Positions 1-12,135 of a stretch of DNA of 12,135 nucleotides are shown piece after piece. Below the pieces are notes generated by a model. That model had not been told where the DNA came from and did not search any database. It worked only from the letters and a program-made list of their open reading frames with translations. The translations under genes were made by a program, and so were the position numbers. Position 1 is the stretch's first letter; every line of letters starts with the position of its first letter. The stretch is from Gemmatimonadota bacterium (lineage in GTDB: Bacteria; Gemmatimonadota; Gemmatimonadetes; Longimicrobiales; Gaopeijiaceae): NCBI GenBank assembly GCA_039589315.1, contig JBDHHQ010000115.1, positions 1 to 12,135 on the forward strand, in the 5' to 3' direction.

Positions 1-1143
1 TTCAACGTGATCGGCGTACGGCCCGGGGTGGGCGACGGGCCGACGGTCGTGCTGAACGCCCACCACGACAACGTGGCCCTCTGGCCCACCGACCAGGCCG
101 TGGAGGCGTTCGTGGCCGACGGCCGGGTGTGGTGCCCCGCCGCATTCGACGACCTCATGGGCGTGACCCAGATGCTCACCGTGCTTCGGGCCATGAACGC
201 GGCAGACATCCAGACAGCGGGGGACGTCTGGTTTGTGGGCCTGACCGGCGAGGAGGCGCCCCACGGCCCCAGCCACCCGGACGCCAGCCCCGGCGCCGAG
301 CAGCTCGTGCGGGCGAACTACCCGCGCAACCTGGACTGGCGCGACGGGGACATCCTGGTGCAGTTCCACGGGCGCGGGGGCGAGGGCGTTGCCACAGGCA
401 GCACGCCGGTTCGGAACCGGACCATCCTCCGGATCTTCGGGCCCTCCGACAACGGGCTGCGCTGGGCGCCCCACGGCGTCGACGCGTTGGCCCGGATCGT
501 CACCCGTGTGGGCCTGGAGGTCAGGGATCCCCGGGCCACCGACGTGCCCTTCGAGAGCAACCAGCTGGCACCGCTCCCCGAGGACGTGCTGTTCATGAAC
601 ATGGGCATGGTGGGCTCGAGCGACATCATCGGTCGGCCCGGCAGCGAGACGTGGGTCCGGTTCGACATGCGGGCGGCGACCCAAGCCCGCCTGGACATGG
701 CCCACGACGTCATCGAGGGGATCGCCGGTGAGGTCACGAGCGCTATGGGTGACGGCTTCTCGTACGTCTACGAGATCAACAGCAAGAACGGCGTCGAGGA
801 GGGAATCCCCGGCTGGGACAAGGTCGACAACGCCCCGGCCCGGATGGCGGCCGCAGCGTCGGTGGCGCTGTACGGGACGGACCCCGTGATCGATCCCGAC
901 AACGGTTGCGGGGACTGCGTGCGGGCCTACAAGACGGGTATGCCCGCCTTCTCGCTCCGGGGTAACGTCGTGGACCACCAGAACGGGCGGGTGGAGCTGG
1001 ACGCGGGCAACGCGCTGGTGTCACCGGTCCGGCGCATGACGGCGACCCACGATGTCACGGAAAGCGCCGAGATCGTGCGGCTGTGGGCCGGCGTGAAGCA
1101 TGGGCTGGTGTTCGCGGTGGCGTACGCGGGGCTAGCCAACTGA
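1..1143 (+). CDS. M20/M25/M40-family metallo-hydrolase/peptidase, 5'-truncated
   Basis: Frame is open from base 1 (FNVIG...). Clan MH motifs NAHHD (HxD), AFDD, TGEE, dimerisation-domain FDMR and C-terminal THDVTE (last His ligand). Stop TGA 1141-1143. Confidence 0.8.
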   Translation, partial: FNVIGVRPGVGDGPTVVLNAHHDNVALWPTDQAVEAFVADGRVWCPAAFDDLMGVTQMLTVLRAMNAADIQTAGDVWFVGLTGEEAPHGPSHPDASPGAEQLVRANYPRNLDWRDGDILVQFHGRGGEGVATGSTPVRNRTILRIFGPSDNGLRWAPHGVDALARIVTRVGLEVRDPRATDVPFESNQLAPLPEDVLFMNMGMVGSSDIIGRPGSETWVRFDMRAATQARLDMAHDVIEGIAGEVTSAMGDGFSYVYEINSKNGVEEGIPGWDKVDNAPARMAAAASVALYGTDPVIDPDNGCGDCVRAYKTGMPAFSLRGNVVDHQNGRVELDAGNALVSPVRRMTATHDVTESAEIVRLWAGVKHGLVFAVAYAGLAN

Positions 1144-1145
1144 TT

Positions 1146-1161
1146 CCCGCTCGAGCGGGTT
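1146..1161 (+). terminator. Possible weak terminator or hairpin right after the hydrolase stop
   Basis: Perfect 14-bp palindrome CCCGCTCGAGCGGG (1146-1159) followed by only TT, between convergent genes. Confidence 0.3.
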
Positions 1162-1272
1162 CGGCTCAGGATCCACGGCCGGGTACCCAAGCGATCGATC
1201 GACCGAGCTCTTGGCGTGCGCGCTGGGTCCGCCGTCCTCACGATCCCTCGTGATCGATCGGAAACCGAGAAC

Positions 1273-2067
1273 TCAGTTGAAGACCGCTGGCTCGTGAACG
1301 GGATGACATCCCACGCACCGGTCGGTCATGGGCTCGAGGTGCCCTGGGGGGCCGTCCGGACCTCGGGGGGCCGGAGGTTTCCAGGAGGAAAGACGTGCTC
1401 CACCGTGGCAGGATTGACACAGAACGTCCGAGTCGGAGGCCGCCAGGCGCACCGGCCCCACGCTGCCATGAAGTTGGTGGCAATCCGAACAAGTGCTACT
1501 GCTGTGGCTCGGCGTGACGTACGCGGCGGGCTCGTGGCACGTCGAACAGAGCATCTGCTGGCCGTCTGCGTCGTTGATCTCCGGGTTGGGCGTGTGGGGG
1601 TCGTGGCAACTCATGCACTGCACGTCGCCGCCGGTGGCTCCGAAGACGCCCATAGAGGACGCCGGTCGCGCGTAACGTATGGAATTCAGGCGGTCCTGCA
1701 TCAACGCGCCAGACCCTTCTGAGCGCTTTCCGACGAAGTGATCGTCCGACAAATCCAGCCCGAGGTAGGTGTTGGGCCCTGCAGAAGGGTTGCCCTGCCA
1801 GTTGCCGCGCATGTGCCGAGCGCGCTCCGTAGTACTCGTGTGGCAGGCGAGGCAATTCGCGGTCGATTCGTCCAGGCCTCCCGGCATGTCCAGCGTTCCG
1901 AACGTTCCTACGCCGTGATCGACGTGACACATCTGGCAGCTGCCCGGCGACTGGGTCAGCGTGCTTCCCCCCGGGTGCTGCCCCATGAGGGACGCCGGGA
2001 CGAGAAGGAAGACCGTCATGAGCGCCGCGCCGCCCAGAGCGGGCACCGTTGCGGACCGCCAAGCCAC
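1273..2067 (-). CDS. Exported heptaheme cytochrome c: OmcE-like tetraheme core plus three extra C-terminal hemes
   Basis: Seven CxxCH (CQMCH, CLACH, CMSCH, CSTCH, CSDCH, CQSCH, CVGCH). Signal-peptide-like N terminus (...LMTVFLLVPASLMG|Q). LGLDLSDDH motif shared with the 6149-6796 protein (VGTDLSDDH). GTG start lies 1 nt after the upstream TGA. Confidence 0.9.
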   Translation of the reverse strand: MAWRSATVPALGGAALMTVFLLVPASLMGQHPGGSTLTQSPGSCQMCHVDHGVGTFGTLDMPGGLDESTANCLACHTSTTERARHMRGNWQGNPSAGPNTYLGLDLSDDHFVGKRSEGSGALMQDRLNSIRYARPASSMGVFGATGGDVQCMSCHDPHTPNPEINDADGQQMLCSTCHEPAAYVTPSHSSSTCSDCHQLHGSVGPVRLAASDSDVLCQSCHGGARLSSWKPPAPRGPDGPPGHLEPMTDRCVGCHPVHEPAVFN

Positions 2068-2068
2068 G

Positions 2069-4000
2069 TCAGAAGCTCCGGCTCAGGCGAACCATGACCC
2101 GTTCCTCGGTCCGCGGGTTGAAGTTCTCCCAAACCAGCCGTTCATAGCCCATCTCCGCGATGACCAGCCCGGGGGCCCATCTCACCCTCAACTCTCCGCC
2201 CAGGAAGTTCTCGAGGCGCGCGGGCTCTCGCCATTTCCAGTAAACCAGCTGACCATCGAGGCTGAGGTCCTCCATGAAAGGCCATTCGAGACCGCCGCGT
2301 GCTTCGGTAAGGACCAAGGTGATGATGCCACTTGCCCATTGCGTCGTGTGGGACCCTGACAGGAGCCAACGCAGCCGGTTGGCCAGGAGGAAGCTCCAGC
2401 GGCCCTGAAAGCGGAAAGTGTCATTGTCGAAGGTGTCGGTAGTGCGACGGGAGTATTCACCCCCGATTCCCACCGTCCCGACGGGCACGGCGGCATTCAA
2501 GGAGGCGCCCGCCGTGAGGAAATCGTAATTGCGGAGGGCCGAGAGCGTCCCCGGGATCACGTCGTCCGTGGCGGTCTGTACCGAACGCCGGTGATAGAGC
2601 CGGACTCCGCTTCCGATGAGCAGTGCCACGTCCAAATCGGTTACCCAGGCGTTGGAAAAGGCTCCTGCCAGCAGCGTGTGTCGGTAGTCCACTCGGACCG
2701 AGGTGCCGGGCGGCATGCGTCCACCTGGAAGGCTCAGGATCTCGACGAACGGGCCCGCGACCACCGCCCTGTAGTCGAAATCTTCCTGGAATACCTCCGC
2801 CCCGTCCTCGCTGCTGATGAGGATGCTGGAGGGATCGGCAAAGGGACGGTCGAGCTGGAAGCGGCCGGACGGAGACACGACATGCGGCTCGTCCACCACG
2901 TCGACGCTGCCCTCGAGTTTGGGATCTTGACCATGCCATTCGTAGCCCAGGGTACCCGTGGCCCGGAGCAGGATGCCCAGCGGCAGCGGCGTCGTCAGAT
3001 TCACGCCCGGACCGATCCGGGAGTACCTCAAGCTGCCGAGCGCCAAGTCCCGATGCTGCGTGTAGGCTGTAGCGTCGACACCCAGGCCTGGCAGGGCTTG
3101 GAAGGTCAAGGCGGCGGATCCCGTGGTCTCACCGGCCCGGCCCACCGCCCTCGACTCTCCTGTCCGCTGAAACCACATCTCCGACGAGACTTTCTGGGTG
3201 TGCTGGATCCGGACGCTCTCTCGCCACGACAATCTGCGGAAGGGGTTGGTCCCCATTCGCTGTCTACCCGAGAGCTCCGACAGCAGCTGGCTGCCCTTGC
3301 CCCAGGTCAGCCGGTGGGAAAGGACGCCATTCCTTAGTCGGTAGTTGCGCCCGGTCAGGCGGTCCAGGAAGGAGACCTGATCCAGCGCAATCCTCAGCCT
3401 ACGGTTCGTTGCCCTGAAGCGCCCGGTCCGGGTTCGTGTCGCGATGCGGAAGGTGGAAGGCGTCGTGCCCGACTCGAAAGACTGGCTCCGGTCATCCTCC
3501 TCGAACGTCAGCTGCATGGGCAGGTAGCGGTTCCGATGATTGAGCGTGGCCCGCAACTGGGTCGCGTCGATCTCCGTGTAGGCGCCCAGCCGGGCTCGCT
3601 GGTCGGCATCGATCCTCGAGCCCTGGAGGCTCAGGGAGACCAGCGACGACGAGAGCAGGGTCACGTTGGCCGAACCCGTGAAGCTCGTGCCGGCGCCATC
3701 CGGCGAGTGGGGCTCGCCAAAGAACGCGGTCTGGGAAAAACCAGGGCGGACGTTGAGGGAGAAGCGTAGGAAGCGTGGGTCCAGCACGGCCCCGCTCATC
3801 TGTAGCCTGATCCACTCGTGAAACGTCCGCAGCCCCCTTTTGGCCAAGGAAGGGACGGTTGAACGGTTGGCGTCCAGGCCGACGCCGAGCTCGCCGGCCG
3901 GACGCGTCACCGTGAAGGTCTGTTGAGCGGCCGCCGGGATCGCCAAGGCGGAGGCCACGCCAAAGGCCAGTGTGCCAACGAACGACGCCCGCGTGATCAT
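2069..4000 (-). CDS. Large outer-membrane beta-barrel (putative porin of a porin-cytochrome complex), about 643 aa
   Basis: Signal peptide MITRASFVGTLAFGVASALAIPAAA|Q. Many alternating amphipathic strands (FSLNVRPGF, LVSLSLQG, FRFQGRWSF, LSLDGQLVYW). C terminus VRLSRSF fits a BamA beta-signal. No heme motifs; flanked by multiheme cytochromes. ATG at 4000 overlaps the upstream TGA (ATGA), preferred over the ORF-track start 4033. Confidence 0.8.
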   Translation of the reverse strand: MITRASFVGTLAFGVASALAIPAAAQQTFTVTRPAGELGVGLDANRSTVPSLAKRGLRTFHEWIRLQMSGAVLDPRFLRFSLNVRPGFSQTAFFGEPHSPDGAGTSFTGSANVTLLSSSLVSLSLQGSRIDADQRARLGAYTEIDATQLRATLNHRNRYLPMQLTFEEDDRSQSFESGTTPSTFRIATRTRTGRFRATNRRLRIALDQVSFLDRLTGRNYRLRNGVLSHRLTWGKGSQLLSELSGRQRMGTNPFRRLSWRESVRIQHTQKVSSEMWFQRTGESRAVGRAGETTGSAALTFQALPGLGVDATAYTQHRDLALGSLRYSRIGPGVNLTTPLPLGILLRATGTLGYEWHGQDPKLEGSVDVVDEPHVVSPSGRFQLDRPFADPSSILISSEDGAEVFQEDFDYRAVVAGPFVEILSLPGGRMPPGTSVRVDYRHTLLAGAFSNAWVTDLDVALLIGSGVRLYHRRSVQTATDDVIPGTLSALRNYDFLTAGASLNAAVPVGTVGIGGEYSRRTTDTFDNDTFRFQGRWSFLLANRLRWLLSGSHTTQWASGIITLVLTEARGGLEWPFMEDLSLDGQLVYWKWREPARLENFLGGELRVRWAPGLVIAEMGYERLVWENFNPRTEERVMVRLSRSF

Positions 4001-4941
4001 TGCGCTCGGACGGTGATGTGGCAGCGGTGGCACTGCTCGATTCCTGCATCGAAGGCCACTACGCCCTGATGGCAGGCTCCGCAGCCCGCCCGTCCGTGAG
4101 CCTCATCCTGGTTGAGATCCAGGGCTCCCCGCAAAGGCTCGAAGAGTTTGTCGTGGCAAGCCTTGCATTTGTAGCGGATCCTGTGCGCCCAGTGCGGGAA
4201 CCGGGAGGGAGGATAAAGGTTGCCCGACAAAGCCGTGAGATCGGGTCCCTCCTCTGCCAGGGCCGAGTCCGCAACCACGGGCTCTGCTCTGATGAGCACG
4301 TAATCCGGCTCCAGGTCTGCCCGGACCCGGTTCGCCGGCAGATCGGGGGCCTCGTGGCAGCGCTCGCACGTCTGAATCGGGAAGGCTACGGGTCCGTGGC
4401 ACCTTCCGCACGACGCATCGCTGTGGATCACATCCCCGGAGACGTCCGCGTCGCCTCGCCGGTAGATGCCCGGGTGACATGTCTCGCAGGTGATCTGGTC
4501 CGCGTGGGTCGAGTGCGGGAACGAGGCTTCGGGCCCGTCTCCCGACTGCATGAAGAAGTCGAAGGGGAACTGGGCGCTCTGCCCGTCATCCTCGCCCGGT
4601 AGCGCATCGCGGGGCCGAATGATCCGCTGGTGCTCGGCGGCGACCCAATCCACGTTCCCGGCTCGGTCCCGAGGCAGCAGTGCAAGGACGCTGTCCCGCT
4701 GCATGATCGCCTCGATCGGCGGCGGCGGTTCCTCGACCTCCACAACGAGTCCGGCTCCGGATCCGGCGGTCCCCGCAGCAGGCTCGGGCGGACGCTCGGC
4801 CGCCGGCGGAAGATCCAGGAGAATCTGAGCCGCCTGGGCGCAGCCCAGCGTGAGGAGCGCGCCGAGAACGACCGGGGGCAGGTTCCGCTTGTTAGGGCCG
4901 CCCCTCGGTCTGGGCCATCTGCCGGGGCTCGACGAAGCCAT
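3997..4941 (-). CDS. Hexaheme lipoprotein cytochrome c with two c(7)-type triheme domains
   Basis: Six CxxCH (CETCH, CGRCH, CERCH; CKACH, CGACH, CHRCH) in two repeats of FPHxxH..CxxCH..CGxCH..VAF..CxRCH. Lipobox LTLG|C. LPRDRAGNVDWV motif precedes the first domain. Start uncertain: ATG 4941 overlaps the upstream gene by 50 nt. Confidence 0.9.
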   Translation of the reverse strand: MASSSPGRWPRPRGGPNKRNLPPVVLGALLTLGCAQAAQILLDLPPAAERPPEPAAGTAGSGAGLVVEVEEPPPPIEAIMQRDSVLALLPRDRAGNVDWVAAEHQRIIRPRDALPGEDDGQSAQFPFDFFMQSGDGPEASFPHSTHADQITCETCHPGIYRRGDADVSGDVIHSDASCGRCHGPVAFPIQTCERCHEAPDLPANRVRADLEPDYVLIRAEPVVADSALAEEGPDLTALSGNLYPPSRFPHWAHRIRYKCKACHDKLFEPLRGALDLNQDEAHGRAGCGACHQGVVAFDAGIEQCHRCHITVRAQ

Positions 4942-6025
4942 AGACGTTCAGTCGGTCTGGACCGTACTGGTTCGTGACTAGGATGAGGTATTTGAGCTCG
5001 AACGACTCGTGCACCAGCGGGCGAAAGTAATCCAGGTTGTCGTAGTCGATGATCACCTGGGCCGGCAGCCACATGTCTCCCGGTCCCTGGTACGGTCCGC
5101 CGAAGAACATGAGCAGCTCGCCATCGCGATTGAACACCTGCACGTTCTCGAAGCCCGAGTCAACGACGTAAACGTTGCCGTCACGGTCCGCGGCGACTCC
5201 CTTGGGACGGGTGAACTGGCCCATCCGGGAGCCGTAGCTTCCGAGCCGATGCAGGAACCGGCCCTCGCGAGAGTAGGCCTTGACGCTGAAGTCGCCGAAG
5301 TCACTCACGTAGACCCGGTCATCTTGGACCCAGAGATTCGTCGGCTGGCGGAGGACCCCGTTCGACTCGTTCTCGGGGAAGGACCGGACGTGGCGGCGGG
5401 TGGATTTGTCATAGACATGAACCGCTCCCCCAGTGACGTCCGCGACCCAGAGACTCTGGTCGTCCACGAACACGTCCGTGGGTCGCAGCCCCCGATCCTC
5501 GCCGAAGGCATCCTTGTAGACCCCGGTCGAGTCGAACACCACGATCTGACCGCGATCCGCATCGGCGACGTACAGATCGCCCGTGACTCTATCTACACTG
5601 CAGTTGATGGGCTTTCTGAGCTTCCCGGGACCCTGCGGAACGAAGTACTCGAAGGTCTTGGCATTCAGGTCCAGGACATCGAGGCCCGGGAGCATGGAGT
5701 CGCAGACGTAGATGACACCGTCTTGGATTGCGACTCCGTACGGCTTGTTGAAGGTCTTGTAGCTCTCGTCCTCGTCGGAGCCGATAAGGGCATCCAGGAA
5801 CGATCGACCCTTCTCTCCCACGACGTCTCGCTCATCCGAGAAGGCGGCCAGAAACTGGATGCGCGGGGGGTCCGGCGGCAAGGGGTATACGATCAGCAGG
5901 TCGTCAGGAGAGGGTTGTGGGCTGCTGTCGCTCTGCCCGGTGGCGCACGCAGCTGCTGCGAACAGCAGCGCTGCGGTTACGATTCGCTTGGCGGCTTGCG
6001 CTCCGCCGCTGCTTTCCATGGTCAT
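4892..6025 (-). CDS. NHL-repeat six-bladed beta-propeller lipoprotein
   Basis: Repeated NHL blades (FNKPYGVA, LRKPINCS, LRPTDVF, LRQPTNLW, FTRPKGVAADRDGNVYVVDSG, WLPAQV). Lipobox AAAA|C and PLPPDPPRIQFL after the tether. Start ATG 6025 (AAGG upstream) or 6019; the ORF-track start 6067 lies inside a stem-loop. Confidence 0.88.
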   Translation of the reverse strand: MTMESSGGAQAAKRIVTAALLFAAAACATGQSDSSPQPSPDDLLIVYPLPPDPPRIQFLAAFSDERDVVGEKGRSFLDALIGSDEDESYKTFNKPYGVAIQDGVIYVCDSMLPGLDVLDLNAKTFEYFVPQGPGKLRKPINCSVDRVTGDLYVADADRGQIVVFDSTGVYKDAFGEDRGLRPTDVFVDDQSLWVADVTGGAVHVYDKSTRRHVRSFPENESNGVLRQPTNLWVQDDRVYVSDFGDFSVKAYSREGRFLHRLGSYGSRMGQFTRPKGVAADRDGNVYVVDSGFENVQVFNRDGELLMFFGGPYQGPGDMWLPAQVIIDYDNLDYFRPLVHESFELKYLILVTNQYGPDRLNVYGFVEPRQMAQTEGRP

Positions 6026-6053
6026 CGCTCGAACCTTGAGGACCGTTTGTGGA

Positions 6054-6082
6054 GGGGGGGCAGGCATCGGGCCTACCCCCCC
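6054..6082 (-). terminator. Strong intergenic stem-loop downstream of the omcE-like gene (mRNA stabiliser or leaky terminator)
   Basis: mRNA GGGGGGGUAGGC-CCGAU-GCCUGCCCCCCC forms a 12-bp stem with one G-U pair and has no poly-U tail. Confidence 0.6.
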
Positions 6083-6148
6083 AGTAGGTGCTCAGGCCGC
6101 GGCGAGTCCGCCCCGTCCCAAGCGTTGAGGCCGTTGAGGCAGCGCTCC

Positions 6149-6796
6149 TTACTTCTTGTGGCAGGTCAGACAGAACTGGCTGTTCGTGTTCTCGACCAGC
6201 AGCAGTGCTGTGTTCCCGCTGTTATGGACGTCGTGGCACGAGGCGCACTCCAGGTTGTCGCCGAAGAGCAGGTCTGCCTGGATGGTACCGCCTAGCGCCG
6301 TGAGGTGGCCGTTGTCCGTGGGGTCCCAAAGCTCGATGTCGGACGTAGCAAGCGCTGCCGTGTACGCGAACGAAATCGGGTGATCGTCCGACAGATCCGT
6401 TCCGACGTCCCGATTCGCGGGGATGAAGTTGGTGCCGGTCGTGTTGCCGCTGAAGTTGTCCAGAGCCACCGTGCCGTCGTGACAGCTCAGGCAGAGCTTC
6501 GACTGATTGTTGGGCTGGCCAGGGGCCGACTGCATCTCCGTGCTGGAATAGGGCGTGAAGTTGGTGACGCCTGTGACCGTATGATTCCACAGTGGCGCCG
6601 TGAGCACCGTCTGGTCGCCGTTGTGAGGCGTGTGACACACCTCACAGATCTCACCGCCGGCGGTACCGGGGCCCGGGTTCCATGCATCGTCACTGAAGTC
6701 ATGAGCCGAGCCTATGATGGTCGCCTGTCCCATAGCGGGAGTCGCCGAGAGCGCCGCGAGCAGCGCGACAGAAACAAGTGTGGCTGTGCGTTTCAT
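6149..6796 (-). CDS. omcE: OmcE-like exported tetraheme cytochrome c (candidate cytochrome nanowire subunit)
   Basis: Signal peptide, four CxxCH, and the ordered motifs HDFS / EICEVCHTPHN / PLWN / FTPYSS / SKLCLSCHDG / GTDLSDDHPISF / LECASCHDVH / NSQFCLTCHK. These match my recollection of Geobacter OmcE (HDLS / QICVFCHTPHN / PLWN / FTLYSS / SLFCMSCHDG / GTDLSNDHPVNF / LECGSCHKVH / GSKLCLGCHK). Size 215 aa. The symbol denotes homology, not proven orthology. Confidence 0.85.
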   Translation of the reverse strand: MKRTATLVSVALLAALSATPAMGQATIIGSAHDFSDDAWNPGPGTAGGEICEVCHTPHNGDQTVLTAPLWNHTVTGVTNFTPYSSTEMQSAPGQPNNQSKLCLSCHDGTVALDNFSGNTTGTNFIPANRDVGTDLSDDHPISFAYTAALATSDIELWDPTDNGHLTALGGTIQADLLFGDNLECASCHDVHNSGNTALLLVENTNSQFCLTCHKK

Positions 6797-6800
6797 TCAT

Positions 6801-6808
6801 TCCTCCTT
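6801..6808 (-). promoter_or_regulatory. Strong Shine-Dalgarno of the omcE-like gene
   Basis: AAGGAGGA ends 4 nt before ATG 6796 and is the best SD match seen in the cluster. Confidence 0.85.
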
Positions 6809-6841
6809 GGAAGAGAGGATTCCCCGGGGTTTGCACAACCC

Positions 6842-6863
6842 GTCCGGAGTCCTCGCTCCGGAC
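6842..6863 (-). promoter_or_regulatory. Perfect 8-bp inverted repeat upstream of the omcE-like gene
   Basis: GTCCGGAG-N6-CTCCGGAC, seen directly; function inferred. Confidence 0.45.
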
Positions 6864-6958
6864 TTTCTCCAAAGGTACAGGAAGGCCCCAAACAGCGGCG
6901 TAGGGAGAGATTAGGTGCGTGAGAGGGGAGCTGTCCCGCCCGACTGTCAGGGCATTCC

Positions 6959-8785
6959 CTACAACGAATCGTTACGCCGCCCTCGAGGCACCGTATCCGG
7001 CGTGGGCGGGCGTGGGTCGAAGGGCTCGTCCCGCAGCTCCTCGTGGCACGCGAGGCACACGGAGCGGGTCCACCAGGGATCTGCCGCGGGGAAGGTCTTG
7101 TGGCACACCGAGCCCGAGCAGGTGGCGTGGACCAGGTCTTCCTCATGTGCCCAGGACGGCGGTGGGTTGTGACACGCCGCGCACTCGGTTTCGGTCTCGT
7201 GGTGGTCCACGTGACAGCTCACGCAGTCCACCTCGTCGGCGTTCATGGCCCGCTCCACCTCGTGGCACTGGGCACACCCCGCTTCCACGTGCGAGCCGTG
7301 GGGAAACGCCACGCTCCGGACCTCGGGCCCTCCCGGAAGAGCGAAGACCACGAGACGCTCACGCTCCGCCAGGTTCGTGGTGACGTGGCAGGACTCGCAG
7401 CTGTCGGGGGTTCGGCCCGCGTGGTGGCAAGCGTTGCACCATCCGGCGTTCGTCACCGGAGGCGCGCTCCCGGACTCGTGGCACCTCAAGCAGTCCACGC
7501 GCCGATGGGCGTTGTGATTGAACGTGCCGCTGCCGTCCGGCGGGGGAACGTTTGGGTCAACCTCCTGAGCGCCTGCGGACGCTCCGGCAACGGGACGGAC
7601 ACCCGCGGAGGCCTGCAGCGAGGCCATGATGGGCGCGACCAGGGCGACGGGGAAGACGCCTACCGCCCCGGACAGGGCACCCCCTCCGGGTAGCAGCCTG
7701 ACGCTCTGGACCGCCCCGCCGCGCGGCTCGCCGCGTTGTCGAGACGTGAATCCCTCGCTCGACGTCGAGAGACCCACGCGAGGCTCCCTCATGATCTCGC
7801 TGTGGCAGCTCAGGCAGTCGTCTTCTTCCACTCGGAAGTCGTGCTGCGTGTGGCACTGGCTGCAGTCGTCCACGTCGATCCCGGCCCAGACGTGATGCTC
7901 CACGGGCAGCGTATCGACCATGGTGTGACAGCCGATCTCCGAACATGACTGGCCAGCGTCGCGGGAGCGGACCTGGTCGTGGGGGTTGTGGCAGGTGCTG
8001 CACTTCCCCTCGTGCGGCTCGTCCTCGGGGAAGATGCCCACGATCTCACGCATCTCGTGACACGCCAGGCAGGTATCGTGTCCGGGCCGAAGCGTGTTGA
8101 GCGCCAGCGCGGCCGCGCCGTCATGGGCGCCGAAGTCGCCCTCCGGGGGGCTATCCCAGAGCTCGGACTCCTGGTCCGGTAGCTCCGCGTTGAACTGGTG
8201 GCAGGTCACGCAGTGGATGCCCAGGCCCTCCATCCGACTCAGGGCCACGCGGATCTCGTTATGGCATCCGGACCGCCCGCAGGTCCGGTCCGTCGGCGCG
8301 AACTCGTGAATCGAGACGGAATGGCATTCCACGCACTGCAGCCCCCGCAGCGTGCGGTCCTCCGATTCGAGGTGCACCTTGTGCCCTGCGGTGTTGCCGA
8401 CCAGGGCCCACTGCTCCGGGTCGCCGTCCACGTGGCATGCCGCGCACTTCTCGTTTTCGACTTCTGCGTGCGCGCCAATCTCCTCGGGCCCGAACAGGAC
8501 CTGTTCGAGCCCCATCCGGGCGCGCTGGTACGTCGTGGGATGGTGACACGCCTTGCACGAAAGGTCCTTGTGGGCGCTCACCTGGAACAGCTCGAACGGC
8601 TCTGCCATGAGATGGCAGCTCGTGCAGAAGTCGTTGTCGTGCTGGACGTAGTCGTACGTGCCGTAGGCGAGCATCCCGGCCGCGGCCGCGGCCAGGGAGA
8701 GGAGGACCGTCAGCCCGGCAACGGCACCTCTGGGAAGTCTCCGCACCCCTGCGAGGAGTCGGCGTGCCCACTGTGGACGTCTCAT
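6959..8785 (-). CDS. Membrane-anchored NapC/NirT(NrfH/CymA)-like multiheme cytochrome c with 19 heme motifs (putative quinol dehydrogenase plus periplasmic heme chain)
   Basis: Arg-rich N terminus and one TM helix (AVAGLTVLLSLAAAAAGMLAY), then NDFCTSCHLM...SAHKDLSCKACH typical of NapC/NirT N-domains. 16 CxxCH plus 3 CX4CH. ATG 8785 preferred over GTG 8869. Confidence 0.85.
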   Translation of the reverse strand: MRRPQWARRLLAGVRRLPRGAVAGLTVLLSLAAAAAGMLAYGTYDYVQHDNDFCTSCHLMAEPFELFQVSAHKDLSCKACHHPTTYQRARMGLEQVLFGPEEIGAHAEVENEKCAACHVDGDPEQWALVGNTAGHKVHLESEDRTLRGLQCVECHSVSIHEFAPTDRTCGRSGCHNEIRVALSRMEGLGIHCVTCHQFNAELPDQESELWDSPPEGDFGAHDGAAALALNTLRPGHDTCLACHEMREIVGIFPEDEPHEGKCSTCHNPHDQVRSRDAGQSCSEIGCHTMVDTLPVEHHVWAGIDVDDCSQCHTQHDFRVEEDDCLSCHSEIMREPRVGLSTSSEGFTSRQRGEPRGGAVQSVRLLPGGGALSGAVGVFPVALVAPIMASLQASAGVRPVAGASAGAQEVDPNVPPPDGSGTFNHNAHRRVDCLRCHESGSAPPVTNAGWCNACHHAGRTPDSCESCHVTTNLAERERLVVFALPGGPEVRSVAFPHGSHVEAGCAQCHEVERAMNADEVDCVSCHVDHHETETECAACHNPPPSWAHEEDLVHATCSGSVCHKTFPAADPWWTRSVCLACHEELRDEPFDPRPPTPDTVPRGRRNDSL

Positions 8786-8977
8786 GAAGCGATCACGGTC
8801 CCTACGTACAGACACGTTTCTTGCGCCCACCCCACCACACCTCGGCGCCGCCGGGTATGACGCACCCACTCGCAGTATCTGCGGGCGCGAAAGAACGAAG
8901 TATCGGGCGAAGCCTGGGTCGGCCGGTAGGGAATCGTCCCTGCACCGGGTGGGGAATCCCCCTTCGAGCTACCTGGC

Positions 8978-10402
8978 TCAAGTGCTCTCGGGCGTGCGTT
9001 CCGGTTCTGCCTGGGGGTGCGGGTTCTCCTTCACCTCGGCCAGCCATCGGTGAAAGGTCCGGCGGCTCACGCCCGCAGCCTCCGCGGCCTGTGAGACATT
9101 GCCGCCGTGCAGCCTCAGCAGCTCCGTCACGTAGGACTCCTGGAACCTCCGCAGCGCCTCCTCGCGCGCCTCGGCGTATCGGACCGAGGAGATCGGGGCG
9201 GGCAAATCCGGCGCGGGTGGTGCGGAACGTCCGAATCGCATCTCGATCGGCAGATCGGACAACGTGACCCGACCGTCGGAGTCCAGCGCTACCACGCGTT
9301 CGACCAGGTTCTTCAGTTGCCGGACGTTGCCTGGCCACGCATAGCTCTCGAGGGCCTCCCACACCTCGGAGCTCACCGCCGGGGGGGATCGTCCCGCCTT
9401 TCGGGAGAAGCTCTCGATGAAGTGCTCTGCGAGAAGCAGGACGTCGCTGTTCCGCTCCCTCAGGGGAGGAACCGTCAGCTTCACCACGTTCAGCCGGTAG
9501 AAGAGGTCCTCGCGGAACCCTCCATCGGCCACCGCGGCTTCGAGATCTCGATTGGTCGCGGCGATCATCCTGACGTCGATGCCGTGGTATTGCGTCGCAC
9601 CCACGGGGCGAACGCTGCGGTCCTCGAGCACGCGGAGGAGCTTGGCCTGGAGAGGTGGTGTGAGCTCGCCCACCTCGTCCAGGAAGATGGTCCCACGGTC
9701 TCCCTCGGTGAGCAGGCCCTTGGTACGGTTCACTGCCCCGGTGAACGCGCCCTTCTCGTGCCCGAACAGCTCGCTTTCCAGCAGTCCCTCGGGCAACGCG
9801 GCGCAATCGACCGGCACGAACGGTCGGTCCCTCCGGTTGCTCGCGGCGTGGATCGCCCTCGCGATGACCTCCTTTCCGGTGCCGCTCTCGCCGACCACGA
9901 GCACGTTGGCCTCCGTCTTCGCCACGCGCTGGGCCTGGTCGAGCAGGCGCACGAACCGCGGGCTGGATCCGACGATGGTGGCGAGGGAGTCGGGGTCGAG
10001 TTGCCGGCGAAGGGCCTGGTTCTCGAGCATCAGACCCCGGTAGCGAACGGCTCTCTTGACGACGACGGAGAGCTGATCGGCCGTGAAGGGCTTGGCCAGG
10101 TAGTCGAACGCTCCTTCGCCGATGGCCTGGATGGCCGAATCCACGGTCGCGTAGCCCGTGATGAGGATCACGGGCAGGCCGGGGTCTTCGGCCTGCGCCT
10201 GGGCCAGGATCGTCAGGCCGTCAACCTGCGGCATGCGTACGTCGGAGATCACGATGTCGGGGTCGGTTTCCCCCAGAGTCTCGTGGAACAGGGTCGGGTC
10301 CTGCAGCGTGGTACAGCGGTATCCCTCGGCCGACAGCAGCCGGTCGAGGTTCTCGAGCATCTCGGGCTCGTCGTCGACGATGAGCACGCGGGTCTCGCTC
10401 AC
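8978..10402 (-). CDS. NtrC/AtoC-family sigma54-dependent response regulator (REC-AAA+-Fis HTH)
   Basis: REC domain (VLIVDDE, ISDVRMP, ITGY, YLAKPF). Walker A GESGTGKE, ESELFGHEKGAFTGA, Walker B FLDEVGE, FREDLFYRLNV, WPGNVRQL, HTH GGNVSQAAEAAGVSRRTF. GTG 10402 overlaps the kinase stop (GTGA). Confidence 0.95.
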   Translation of the reverse strand: MSETRVLIVDDEPEMLENLDRLLSAEGYRCTTLQDPTLFHETLGETDPDIVISDVRMPQVDGLTILAQAQAEDPGLPVILITGYATVDSAIQAIGEGAFDYLAKPFTADQLSVVVKRAVRYRGLMLENQALRRQLDPDSLATIVGSSPRFVRLLDQAQRVAKTEANVLVVGESGTGKEVIARAIHAASNRRDRPFVPVDCAALPEGLLESELFGHEKGAFTGAVNRTKGLLTEGDRGTIFLDEVGELTPPLQAKLLRVLEDRSVRPVGATQYHGIDVRMIAATNRDLEAAVADGGFREDLFYRLNVVKLTVPPLRERNSDVLLLAEHFIESFSRKAGRSPPAVSSEVWEALESYAWPGNVRQLKNLVERVVALDSDGRVTLSDLPIEMRFGRSAPPAPDLPAPISSVRYAEAREEALRRFQESYVTELLRLHGGNVSQAAEAAGVSRRTFHRWLAEVKENPHPQAEPERTPEST

Positions 10403-12135
10403 GACCCCATCCGCGCCGGTGCTTCGCCCCGAGCCGCACGGACCGGTAGCTCTACCACGAAACAACCGCCGAAGCCCTCTCGCTCGGAGGCTCTGATGGA
10501 GCCCCCGTGGCGTTCGACTACGCTTCGGCAGACCGTGAGCCCCAGACCGGTTCCGCCGTCTGCTGCCCGGGTGGTGAAGAACGGCTCGAAGATCCGTCCG
10601 CGCAGCTCCCGAGCGACACCGGGGCCCGTGTCACGGACCTCCCATCGGACGTACCCCGGTCTGGACGCCTGTCCCACCACCACCTCGACCACACCTCCCT
10701 CCGGCGTCATCGAAGCGGCGTTGAGGAGCAGATTCACGAACACGGTCTCGATGGCCTTCTCGTTCCCACTCATGGGGGGCACACGGGACTCCTCGGTCGT
10801 GACCAACTCGACTCCTTTGCGCTGGAAGTTCCGCCGCAGCAGCCGCGTGACCCGGTCCACGACCTGATGCAGATCCACGGTACCATCGCCTTCGGTGTCC
10901 TCGCGCGCGAACGCGAGGAGATCCGTGGTGAGTCGGCCGATGCGCTCCACGTGGGCCCGCAGAACGTCGAGATCGGCACGCACGCGCTCGGGATCCGGCT
11001 GTGCGGCGAGCTCGCGCTGCATGAGCTCGATCCGGTTTCCGAGGATGGCCAGCGGGTTGTTGATCTCGTGGGCCAGTCCCGCTGCCATGACGCTCACGGC
11101 GGCCAATCGCTCCGATCGGCGCATCTGCTCCTCGAGCAGCTGTTCGGCCCGTGCGTCCCGGATGATCAGGGAATACCCGACGACGGCTCCGTCCTTGTCC
11201 ACGATGTGACTCTGTGTGAGGCTGACCGGGAGCTCCTCGCCGGAGCGCGTCGTGCGCAGGGTCCTGAGCGCCACGACGGCCCTCGACTCCGCCAGCTCTC
11301 GTTGGAGGAACGTCTCCTCGGCGGACCGGTGGGTCGCAGCCGGGCCCACGAGTCGCTGGATCGGCACTCCGCGCGCCTCGACCTCGGTGAAGCCGAAGAG
11401 CCTTTCGGCCGCCGGGTTCCAGAGCGTGACCTTGCCGTCCCGATCCAGAGCGACGACCGCGTCGGCCGCGTGTCCAACCACCTGATCGAGATGAGCACGG
11501 GTGGCCGCGAGGGCACGCGTACGTGCCTCCACCATGGCCTCGAGATTGCGACGGTGATCCTCGAGCGACCGCGCCATCTCCGAAAAATCCCGGGCCAGCT
11601 CCTCCAACTCGTCGTTCGTGTGGATCTGGATCGGTCGCGCAGGCTGGCCAGTGGCCAACAGGCGAGTCGCGGAGCGGAGCTCGTAGATGGGACGGGTGAA
11701 CTGATCCGCCGCGACAGCGGAGACCGACAGCACCGTGACCAGAATGGCGGCACCGAGGATGGCCACGATGCCGGCGAAGTAGGCCAAGGACCCTCGAACG
11801 GCTTCCAGGGGGACAACCCGGTAGAGGGTCAGGGGGACCGAGGTGCCCGTGAGCGGAATGGGCCTGAAGCTCGCGAGGTGCGTGGACGTTCGGGTCCGGC
11901 CTGGCCGGCCACTGAGGACCTCCTCGGCCAACTCGCTCCCCAACTCGGCCAGCGGGTCCGACACGGGATCCACCGGCGCGGTCGCTTCGGGCGGTGGGGA
12001 CCACGTCGTATGAAACAGTAGGCCCCCATCGGGACCCACCAGACCGCTCGAGCCGCGATTCCCGGATCGGTCGAGGGACAGAGGGCCGAAAAGGGAGGCC
12101 AGGGGAACCTCCCCCACCGTCAACCCGACGGTGCG
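10399..12135 (-). CDS. NtrB-like sensor histidine kinase (TM-HAMP-PAS-HisKA-HATPase_c), 5'-truncated
   Basis: TM (LAYFAGIVAILGAAILVTVLSVSAVA), HAMP (TRPI..DELEELARDFSEMA), PAS (WNPAAERLFGFT), H-box AHEINNPL, N-box NLLLNA, G1 DTGPG, F-box IFEPFFTT, G2 GTGLGL. Frame stays open to the window edge. Confidence 0.95.
   Translation of the reverse strand, partial: RTVGLTVGEVPLASLFGPLSLDRSGNRGSSGLVGPDGGLLFHTTWSPPPEATAPVDPVSDPLAELGSELAEEVLSGRPGRTRTSTHLASFRPIPLTGTSVPLTLYRVVPLEAVRGSLAYFAGIVAILGAAILVTVLSVSAVAADQFTRPIYELRSATRLLATGQPARPIQIHTNDELEELARDFSEMARSLEDHRRNLEAMVEARTRALAATRAHLDQVVGHAADAVVALDRDGKVTLWNPAAERLFGFTEVEARGVPIQRLVGPAATHRSAEETFLQRELAESRAVVALRTLRTTRSGEELPVSLTQSHIVDKDGAVVGYSLIIRDARAEQLLEEQMRRSERLAAVSVMAAGLAHEINNPLAILGNRIELMQRELAAQPDPERVRADLDVLRAHVERIGRLTTDLLAFAREDTEGDGTVDLHQVVDRVTRLLRRNFQRKGVELVTTEESRVPPMSGNEKAIETVFVNLLLNAASMTPEGGVVEVVVGQASRPGYVRWEVRDTGPGVARELRGRIFEPFFTTRAADGGTGLGLTVCRSVVERHGGSIRASEREGFGGCFVVELPVRAARGEAPARMGS

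Follow-up and report, generated by a model that had tools for sequence, protein, structure and literature searches.

By sequence and modelled fold, the tetrahaem cytochrome c of 215 amino acids encoded at 6149..6796 (minus strand) of the DNA analysed here is a full-length relative of the filament cytochrome OmcE and has the OmcE fold. The DNA (hereafter the window) is 12,135 nucleotides long and is the whole of contig C115 of a Gemmatimonadota genome of 6.67 Mb (67.5% G+C, 95% complete). On sequence and tree evidence the protein sits in a uet-like sister branch marked by a histidine at position 72, and is no orthologue of Geobacter omcE. We think it probable that it is a secreted subunit which polymerises through another histidine, H58, working with an NHL propeller and a large outer-membrane barrel, capped by a seven-haem paralogue and receiving quinol-pool electrons by way of a sixteen-haem and a c7 cytochrome.

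Sequence and predicted fold of the tetrahaem cytochrome

The gene (minus strand, as are all features below unless stated) has an ATG start preceded at 5 nt by a GGAGG ribosome-binding site (AAGGAGG, 6802..6808), identical in the closest related locus, L001. Residues 1-23 (6728..6796) read as a cleavable signal peptide, with a basic start, a hydrophobic stretch (a helix at residues 2-17 in the model) and AMG before a Q at the predicted cleavage site, and since the first cysteine is C51 there is no lipobox, in agreement with the sequence-only reading. That reading had listed four CxxCH motifs and histidines in AHDFS, CHTPH, DDHP and CHDVH, and all are present: haem motifs 1 to 4 are C51-H55 (6632..6646), C102-H106 (6479..6493), C184-H188 (6233..6247) and C209-H213 (6158..6172), and the candidate distal ligands are H32 (AHDFS, 6701..6703), H58 (CHTPH, 6623..6625), H139 (DDHP, 6380..6382) and, after haem motif 3, H191 (CHDVH, 6224..6226). 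It had also placed the last motif at the extreme C terminus, and the protein indeed ends in CLTCHKK. Chance clustering of CxxCH was rejected, as the probability of four in 215 residues is about 1.6e-10 at the genome's own motif rate (321 CxxCH per 8.8 million ORF residues). Pfam and NCBIfam returned generic multihaem models alone for this protein, chiefly doubled CXXCH.

A sequence search of the PDB gave two matches at E 0.01, both of them OmcE filaments: 7TFS from G. sulfurreducens (E 8e-26, query residues 4-215) and 9YUQ from D. soudanensis (E 1e-22, residues 11-215); a profile search returned the same two entries (E 2e-39 and 1e-36). The alignment with G. sulfurreducens OmcE, proposed earlier as a check, runs over nearly the whole length with ~78 identical residues over 212 (counted by hand), and as the non-motif blocks PLWN, YSS and GTDLSDDHP align in all three proteins, the similarity is not limited to CxxCH. 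Length, signal-peptide-like N terminus, four CxxCH and four distal histidines in register, a C terminus flush with haem 4 and the fold are all shared with the two solved filaments. The AlphaFold2 model, which has no haems, has a pLDDT of 68 (under 50 at residues 39-60, which include haem motif 1 and H58); 7TFS was its sole clear match in Foldseek (E 3.3e-7, TM 0.52) and the leading one in a second fold search (Z 9.9, rmsd 3.6 over 167 residues), OmcS (6EF8) coming next at Z 2.4. OmcS likewise has a chain of bis-His haems in which one ligand comes from the adjacent subunit (described in PMC6584659 and PMC9473688), but it has six haems and gave no sequence match.

Of 7630 candidates, 5112 scored E 1e-10 or better, and conservation was read from an alignment of the query with 111 of 120 relatives among the matches listed; as this alignment holds the closest relatives, invariance within it describes one branch. 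Every CxxCH motif, H32, H58, H139 and H191 are invariant in all 112 sequences, and so is a ninth conserved histidine, H72 (PLWNH, 6581..6583), which is Arg in 7TFS and 9YUQ and which the earlier reading had overlooked along with H164 (present in 1 of 112). In 110 of the 112 the chain has just two residues beyond haem 4. Five-haem OmcE-like paralogues, 14 among the matches listed (e.g. L011:15366, L014:755, L015:16503, L016:4554 and L020:10198), resemble the 'leaky' family proposed in PMC13712944.

Gene neighbourhood

In minus-strand order the window holds genes for a histidine kinase, an NtrC-type regulator, the sixteen-haem protein, the tetrahaem protein, an NHL protein, a c7 protein, the barrel and the seven-haem protein. 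The HAMP-PAS histidine kinase (10399..12123) is probably cut by the contig end and is followed by a sigma-54 response regulator of NtrC type (8978..10465); an M20/M28-type peptidase (1-1143, plus strand), cut by the contig start, is unrelated to the module. The sixteen-haem cytochrome (6959..8869, likely start 8785) has an N-terminal membrane anchor and an NrfH/NapC-like domain (NrfH 2J7A, E 4.7e-7; TIGR03153 at E 3.8e-5, below cut-off) and is a predicted link to the quinol pool; among the loci read its gene occurs in the window and L001 only. Downstream of the tetrahaem gene lie an NHL beta-propeller of 'NHL1' type (4892..6025, Pfam NHL E 2.6e-15) with a lipobox-like AAAAC (Cys27 counted from the ATG at 6025), and a six-haem protein (3997..4941) with a lipobox-like LTLGC and two c7 domains (TIGR04257 above cut-off over two stretches), which is a predicted periplasmic carrier. 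Next comes a large beta-barrel protein of the outer membrane (2069..4033, likely start ATG at 4000; 654 amino acids) with a C-terminal Phe and no Pfam match, whose model has ~30 long strands (pLDDT 89.8) and, among the matches listed, resembled outer-membrane barrels in the PDB only distantly, with TM up to 0.37. A small beta-domain is inserted in the barrel model at residues about 391-454, and the sole invariant residues in a 42-sequence alignment, E382, D420 and Y450, lie in or beside it.

From at least 620 confirmed matches 79 loci were kept, of which 74 have a tetra- or pentahaem relative and 44 of these are 14 kb or more in length. Among the matches listed, these 44 long loci have the propeller in 41, the barrel in 41, a second NHL gene in 37 and an undecahaem gene in 36. 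In its available text, PMC13712944 uses a propeller lipoprotein and a large barrel to recognise nanowire-capable homologues, and both stand beside the tetrahaem gene here. The observation in the sequence-only reading that the window lacks glycosylation genes was borne out, no glycosyltransferase family matching any of the nine window proteins scanned; this is no objection to a filament, since D. soudanensis OmcE filaments are described as lacking glycan density and its cluster type as lacking such genes (PMC13712944).

The intergenic stretch 5' of the tetrahaem gene (6797-6960) is strongly conserved with L001 and has two short hairpins. The region upstream of the gene folds no better than shuffled sequence (z -0.3), and the window gave no Rfam match up to E 1, and hence no known riboswitch at that place. 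Neither a sigma-70-type promoter nor a terminator was found on the coding strand within 1000-9200, and no sigma-54 consensus within two mismatches was found in the window, although an NtrC-type regulator adjoins. Immediately 3' of the tetrahaem gene is a 12-bp G+C-rich stem-loop without a U tract (6054..6082, z -2.78), predicted to be an mRNA-stabilising or attenuating element, whose pairing is kept in L001 through one compensatory change, alongside one one-sided change. Among related loci in the matches listed, z is below -2 after the tetrahaem gene in 43 of 68 and after the next gene in 6 of 68, a contrast which is overstated because a mostly intergenic stretch is set against a mostly coding control; the loci are also related to one another. 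Such an element fits the idea of a subunit made in excess.

A uet-like branch distinct from canonical omcE loci

An IQ-TREE phylogeny with midpoint root was built from 66 rows, taken from the window and 40 chosen loci. It places the tetrahaem protein in a branch of 26 rows (98/96), separate from the branch of five canonical rows (97/84); several His72 rows lie outside the 26-row branch. Matches were found in 20 of the 41 genomes of the family to which a Geobacter-titled locus belongs, and seven regions were read. Five have the canonical layout of two multihaem genes (nine-haem and eight-haem), NHL, an Arg-type tetrahaem gene (one of whose products matches 7TFS at E 4e-46), NHL and a ~770-aa barrel, unlike the window; the remaining two have NHL, a pentahaem gene, a ~675-aa barrel, NHL and a ten-motif undecahaem relative. 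The window barrel matches that of the second layout and not the canonical one: against a profile of the five canonical barrels it showed no similarity (hhalign probability 0.4, E 0.16), and the same five-sequence profile found nothing in this genome or in the other loci. Orthology to the canonical omcE locus, the type in which both solved filaments, those of G. sulfurreducens and D. soudanensis, are encoded according to PMC13712944, was therefore rejected on gene set and order, on the unmatched barrel profiles and on the separate tree branch.

The content of the window, rather than sequence identity, recalls the uet cluster of Tenderiales and Gallionella, made up of the tetrahaem UetA, the barrel UetC, the c7 trihaems UetDEG, the NHL proteins UetHI and the undecahaem UetJ (bioRxiv 2022.05.06.490989). 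A tetrahaem protein, a large barrel, c7 domains and NHL are all in the window, and the ~30 strands modelled for its barrel compare with the 28 predicted for UetC, with a pore of about 5 nm (same preprint). It differs in that no UetJ with its own NHL protein was found in this genome, a seven-haem OmcE paralogue following the barrel instead, in that the c7 domains are fused in one lipoprotein, and in having no PPIase or cupredoxin in the window. In the available text of the preprint and of PMC10734462, uet is presented as an MtrCAB-like conduit with polymerisation as a mere possibility, and OmcE is not mentioned. A related-looking occ cluster has also been described (bioRxiv 695007).

The seven-haem paralogue and the distribution of the module in Gemmatimonadota

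The last gene of the module (1273..2067) encodes a seven-haem protein which, across haems 1-4, is paralogous to OmcE (hhalign probability 98.9, E 3.5e-17, 172 columns) and which aligns to positions 105-291 of a profile of the undecahaem proteins, themselves starting with a complete OmcE domain. It stands where other phyla usually have the undecahaem gene, and no undecahaem was found in this 95% complete genome or in three of four other genomes tested. Eight candidate distal histidines for seven haems leave one spare: in 18 aligned relatives H51, H110, H158, H188 and H200 never vary, H258 is present in 17, and all 16 rows with seven motifs have a histidine before haem 1 and another between haems 6 and 7. 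From this histidine pattern the seven-haem protein is a candidate filament cap or anchor.

The closest related locus among the matches listed, L001, is 87% identical and titled Gemmatimonadota, and its match coordinates are those of the same-genus genome G001. As 16S primer motifs gave no site in the assembly, assignment to the phylum goes by this kinship. A contaminant contig was rejected as the origin of the window, as a genome of the same genus has the same module at 81-88% identity (tetrahaem, barrel and sixteen-haem proteins). OmcE-like matches were found in 4 of 41 relatives of this genome and in 23 of 401 sampled Gemmatimonadota genomes; the 23 genomes hold 28 matches, for which 14 regions were fetched. 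Nine of these have the tetrahaem, NHL, c7, barrel and seven-haem genes together, four are Arg-type clusters without the seven-haem gene, and one is a lone copy without H58. Elsewhere, related loci among the matches listed are titled Bacteroidota, Calditrichota, Verrucomicrobiota, Pseudomonadota, Thermodesulfobacteriota and others. The Arg-type cluster is a second OmcE cluster in the phylum (NHL, tetrahaem, c7 and barrel genes; L089 (G001:C252), L090, L091 and L130-L133) and includes an undecahaem gene in L089 and L090; the same-genus genome G001 holds both cluster types, its undecahaem gene lying in the Arg-type one.

In the genome studied here the tetrahaem protein is the only one found (at 95% completeness). 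Genes of ccmC, ccmE and ccmF type are on contig C30, and three ORFs have a haem-copper oxidase motif in context. An NHL lipoprotein and a thirteen-haem cytochrome encoded on contig C41 (43888-46922, plus strand) are 35-52% and 33-43% identical to a pair flanking the module in L120, L122-L124 and L126-L129, and probably belong to the same system, from which they have become detached. A cluster of eight-, seventeen- and sixteen-haem cytochromes lies on contig C12 (102496-108659, minus strand); its seventeen-haem member is a paralogue of the sixteen-haem protein of the window (38% to the L001 orthologue of the latter), and relatives of the cluster adjoin the second OmcE-type cluster of G001. Five ORFs of 800-950 aa with eight CxxCH each were also seen, on contigs C12, C21, C40, C54 and C63.

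No description of an OmcE-type cluster in Gemmatimonadota was found in the open-access main texts searched. Gemmatimonadota is not among the five phyla to which the available text of PMC13712944 assigns nanowire-type OmcE homologues, that of the Gemmatimonadota-related PMC13264449 says that nanowires were not investigated, and a peat preprint (10.64898/2026.05.27.727921) has OmcE-like cytochromes in one legend.

H58 as the putative inter-subunit ligand

Histidine losses in the family fall unevenly. Among 109 non-redundant tetrahaem proteins in the matches listed, H191 is kept in 109, H139 in 108, H32 in 100 (with 6 gaps and 3 other residues) and H58 in 98. H58 is present in all 68 copies encoded directly before a propeller gene but lost in 11 of the 41 other copies, 9 of the 11 sharing their locus with an H58-bearing copy (again among the matches listed). 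As whole paralogues can lose it, H58 may be read as serving another chain, and the pattern points to this CxxCHxxH histidine after haem 1, rather than H32, as the inter-subunit ligand; the set of four distal histidines given by the sequence-only reading stands. In OmcS, too, the donor is the CxxCHxxH histidine after the first haem. In both OmcE and OmcS one haem takes a histidine from the adjacent subunit (PMC12954529, PMC9473688, PMC6584659, PMC13712944), and as the OmcS acceptor is haem 505 of six (PMC6584659), haem 4 as the acceptor here is a guess.

The tetrahaem paralogues without H58 (L002:6665, L006:16222, L015:17383, L016:16470, L023:16624, L026:11107, L036:11741, L052:10088, L054:12403, L092:550 and L121:3174) are, judged by that loss, candidate filament end subunits. 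A homodimer prediction with four haems (residues 24-215) scored 0.01 against a mark of 0.42, which does not bear on the question either way.

Polymerising subunit or fixed conduit

In the explanation that we favour, the subunit would be exported and then loaded with four haems by the Ccm system of the genome, a step suggested by the signal peptide, CxxCH motifs and ccm genes. Three haems would be ligated by distal histidines of their own chain, while H58 would bind a terminal haem of the next subunit, as the paralogue losses and the OmcE and OmcS structures suggest. Subunits would thereby join head to tail into a filament on the cell surface, its bis-His haems forming an unbroken chain. From gene order and the barrel model, the NHL lipoprotein may chaperone the subunit and the ~30-strand barrel pass or anchor the filament; the stem-loop may raise the abundance of the tetrahaem protein over that of the downstream parts, and the seven-haem paralogue may cap one filament end with its spare histidine. 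Electrons would pass from the quinol pool to the sixteen-haem protein, the c7 lipoprotein, the barrel and the filament. We lean slightly towards outward rather than inward flow; uet has been proposed for electron uptake (bioRxiv 2022.05.06.490989) and OmcE for export.

Of the earlier proposal of an OmcE filament subunit, family membership and the haem ligand set hold, and polymerisation is the most likely reading, by inference. Homology alone is no proof of polymerisation, since identity to canonical Geobacteraceae OmcE (32-36%) is close to that with the OmcE domain of undecahaem proteins (36-38%). No filament was found described in the literature for the His72 branch, and it is disputed what physiological role OmcE filaments themselves play (PMC11077965).

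The strongest competitor, though a rather unlikely one in our view, is a porin-cytochrome conduit of which the protein is a stoichiometric subunit: a single copy or a small number of copies would sit with the seven-haem protein on or within the barrel and make a short fixed wire. The same histidine-to-haem link would serve, and this is the default published model for uet; the content of the window matches uet, which is described as MtrCAB-like (bioRxiv 2022.05.06.490989, PMC10734462), and OmcE domains also occur in the undecahaem and seven-haem proteins, which are unable to polymerise head to tail. The barrel being unlike those of canonical omcE loci also suits a fixed conduit, and if the subunit does polymerise, its assembly may follow a different route. 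Excess production is suggested, however, by the conserved stem-loop and strong ribosome-binding site, the tetrahaem protein has no lipid anchor, and with the C terminus flush with haem 4 and, by count, one donor histidine and one open haem, both of its ends can join.

That the protein never leaves the periplasm, serving there as an oligomer, a soluble carrier or a store of electrons, seems improbable. A Sec-type signal alone is visible, surface location being predicted, and cytochrome filaments have been credited with storage roles (PMC11077965); against this, the gene is tightly linked to that of a very large barrel (in 41 of the 44 long loci among the matches listed), both solved relatives are extracellular, and the module already has a c7 periplasmic carrier. 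Least credible is H72 as a ninth ligand satisfying the terminal haem within the chain and giving a self-capped monomer or an anchor or terminator, for although nine conserved histidines with four haems are proposed in PMC13712944 as the signature of a non-polymerising anchor and H72 is found in every one of the 112 close relatives, its place in 7TFS and 9YUQ is taken, in a gap-free alignment, by the Arg of PLWNR, which is no iron ligand there, the branch member L025 has Arg, His72 proteins hold the lead position in 64 of 68 cases among the matches listed, and as the sole tetrahaem found in a 95% complete genome the protein would have nothing else to anchor.

Implications for cytochrome nanowires

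The polymerising reading may extend to the whole His72 branch, which could be a second and far more widespread OmcE-type nanowire system, in which paralogues without H58, able only to receive a ligand, would close one end. The other would be closed by the undecahaem protein, or in Gemmatimonadota by the seven-haem protein with its spare histidine, which would donate a ligand and satisfy its own haems. This we hold to be possible but doubtful. That OmcE-like genes are widespread is already known, and uet was published with polymerisation suggested. Secretion, start and end of cytochrome nanowires are stated as open in the available text of PMC13712944, which found nothing in omcE operons that could be the tip and, for the anchor, a distant candidate only. 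The module described here is small and its parts can be named (a donor histidine, H58; a cap candidate, the seven-haem protein with H51; one propeller; one barrel), and it places the capacity in Gemmatimonadota, with OmcE-like sequence in those 23 of the 401 genomes sampled. If the His72 branch were such a second system, the Gemmatimonadota module, with its five genes, would amount to a minimal kit with which a cytochrome nanowire is built and terminated.
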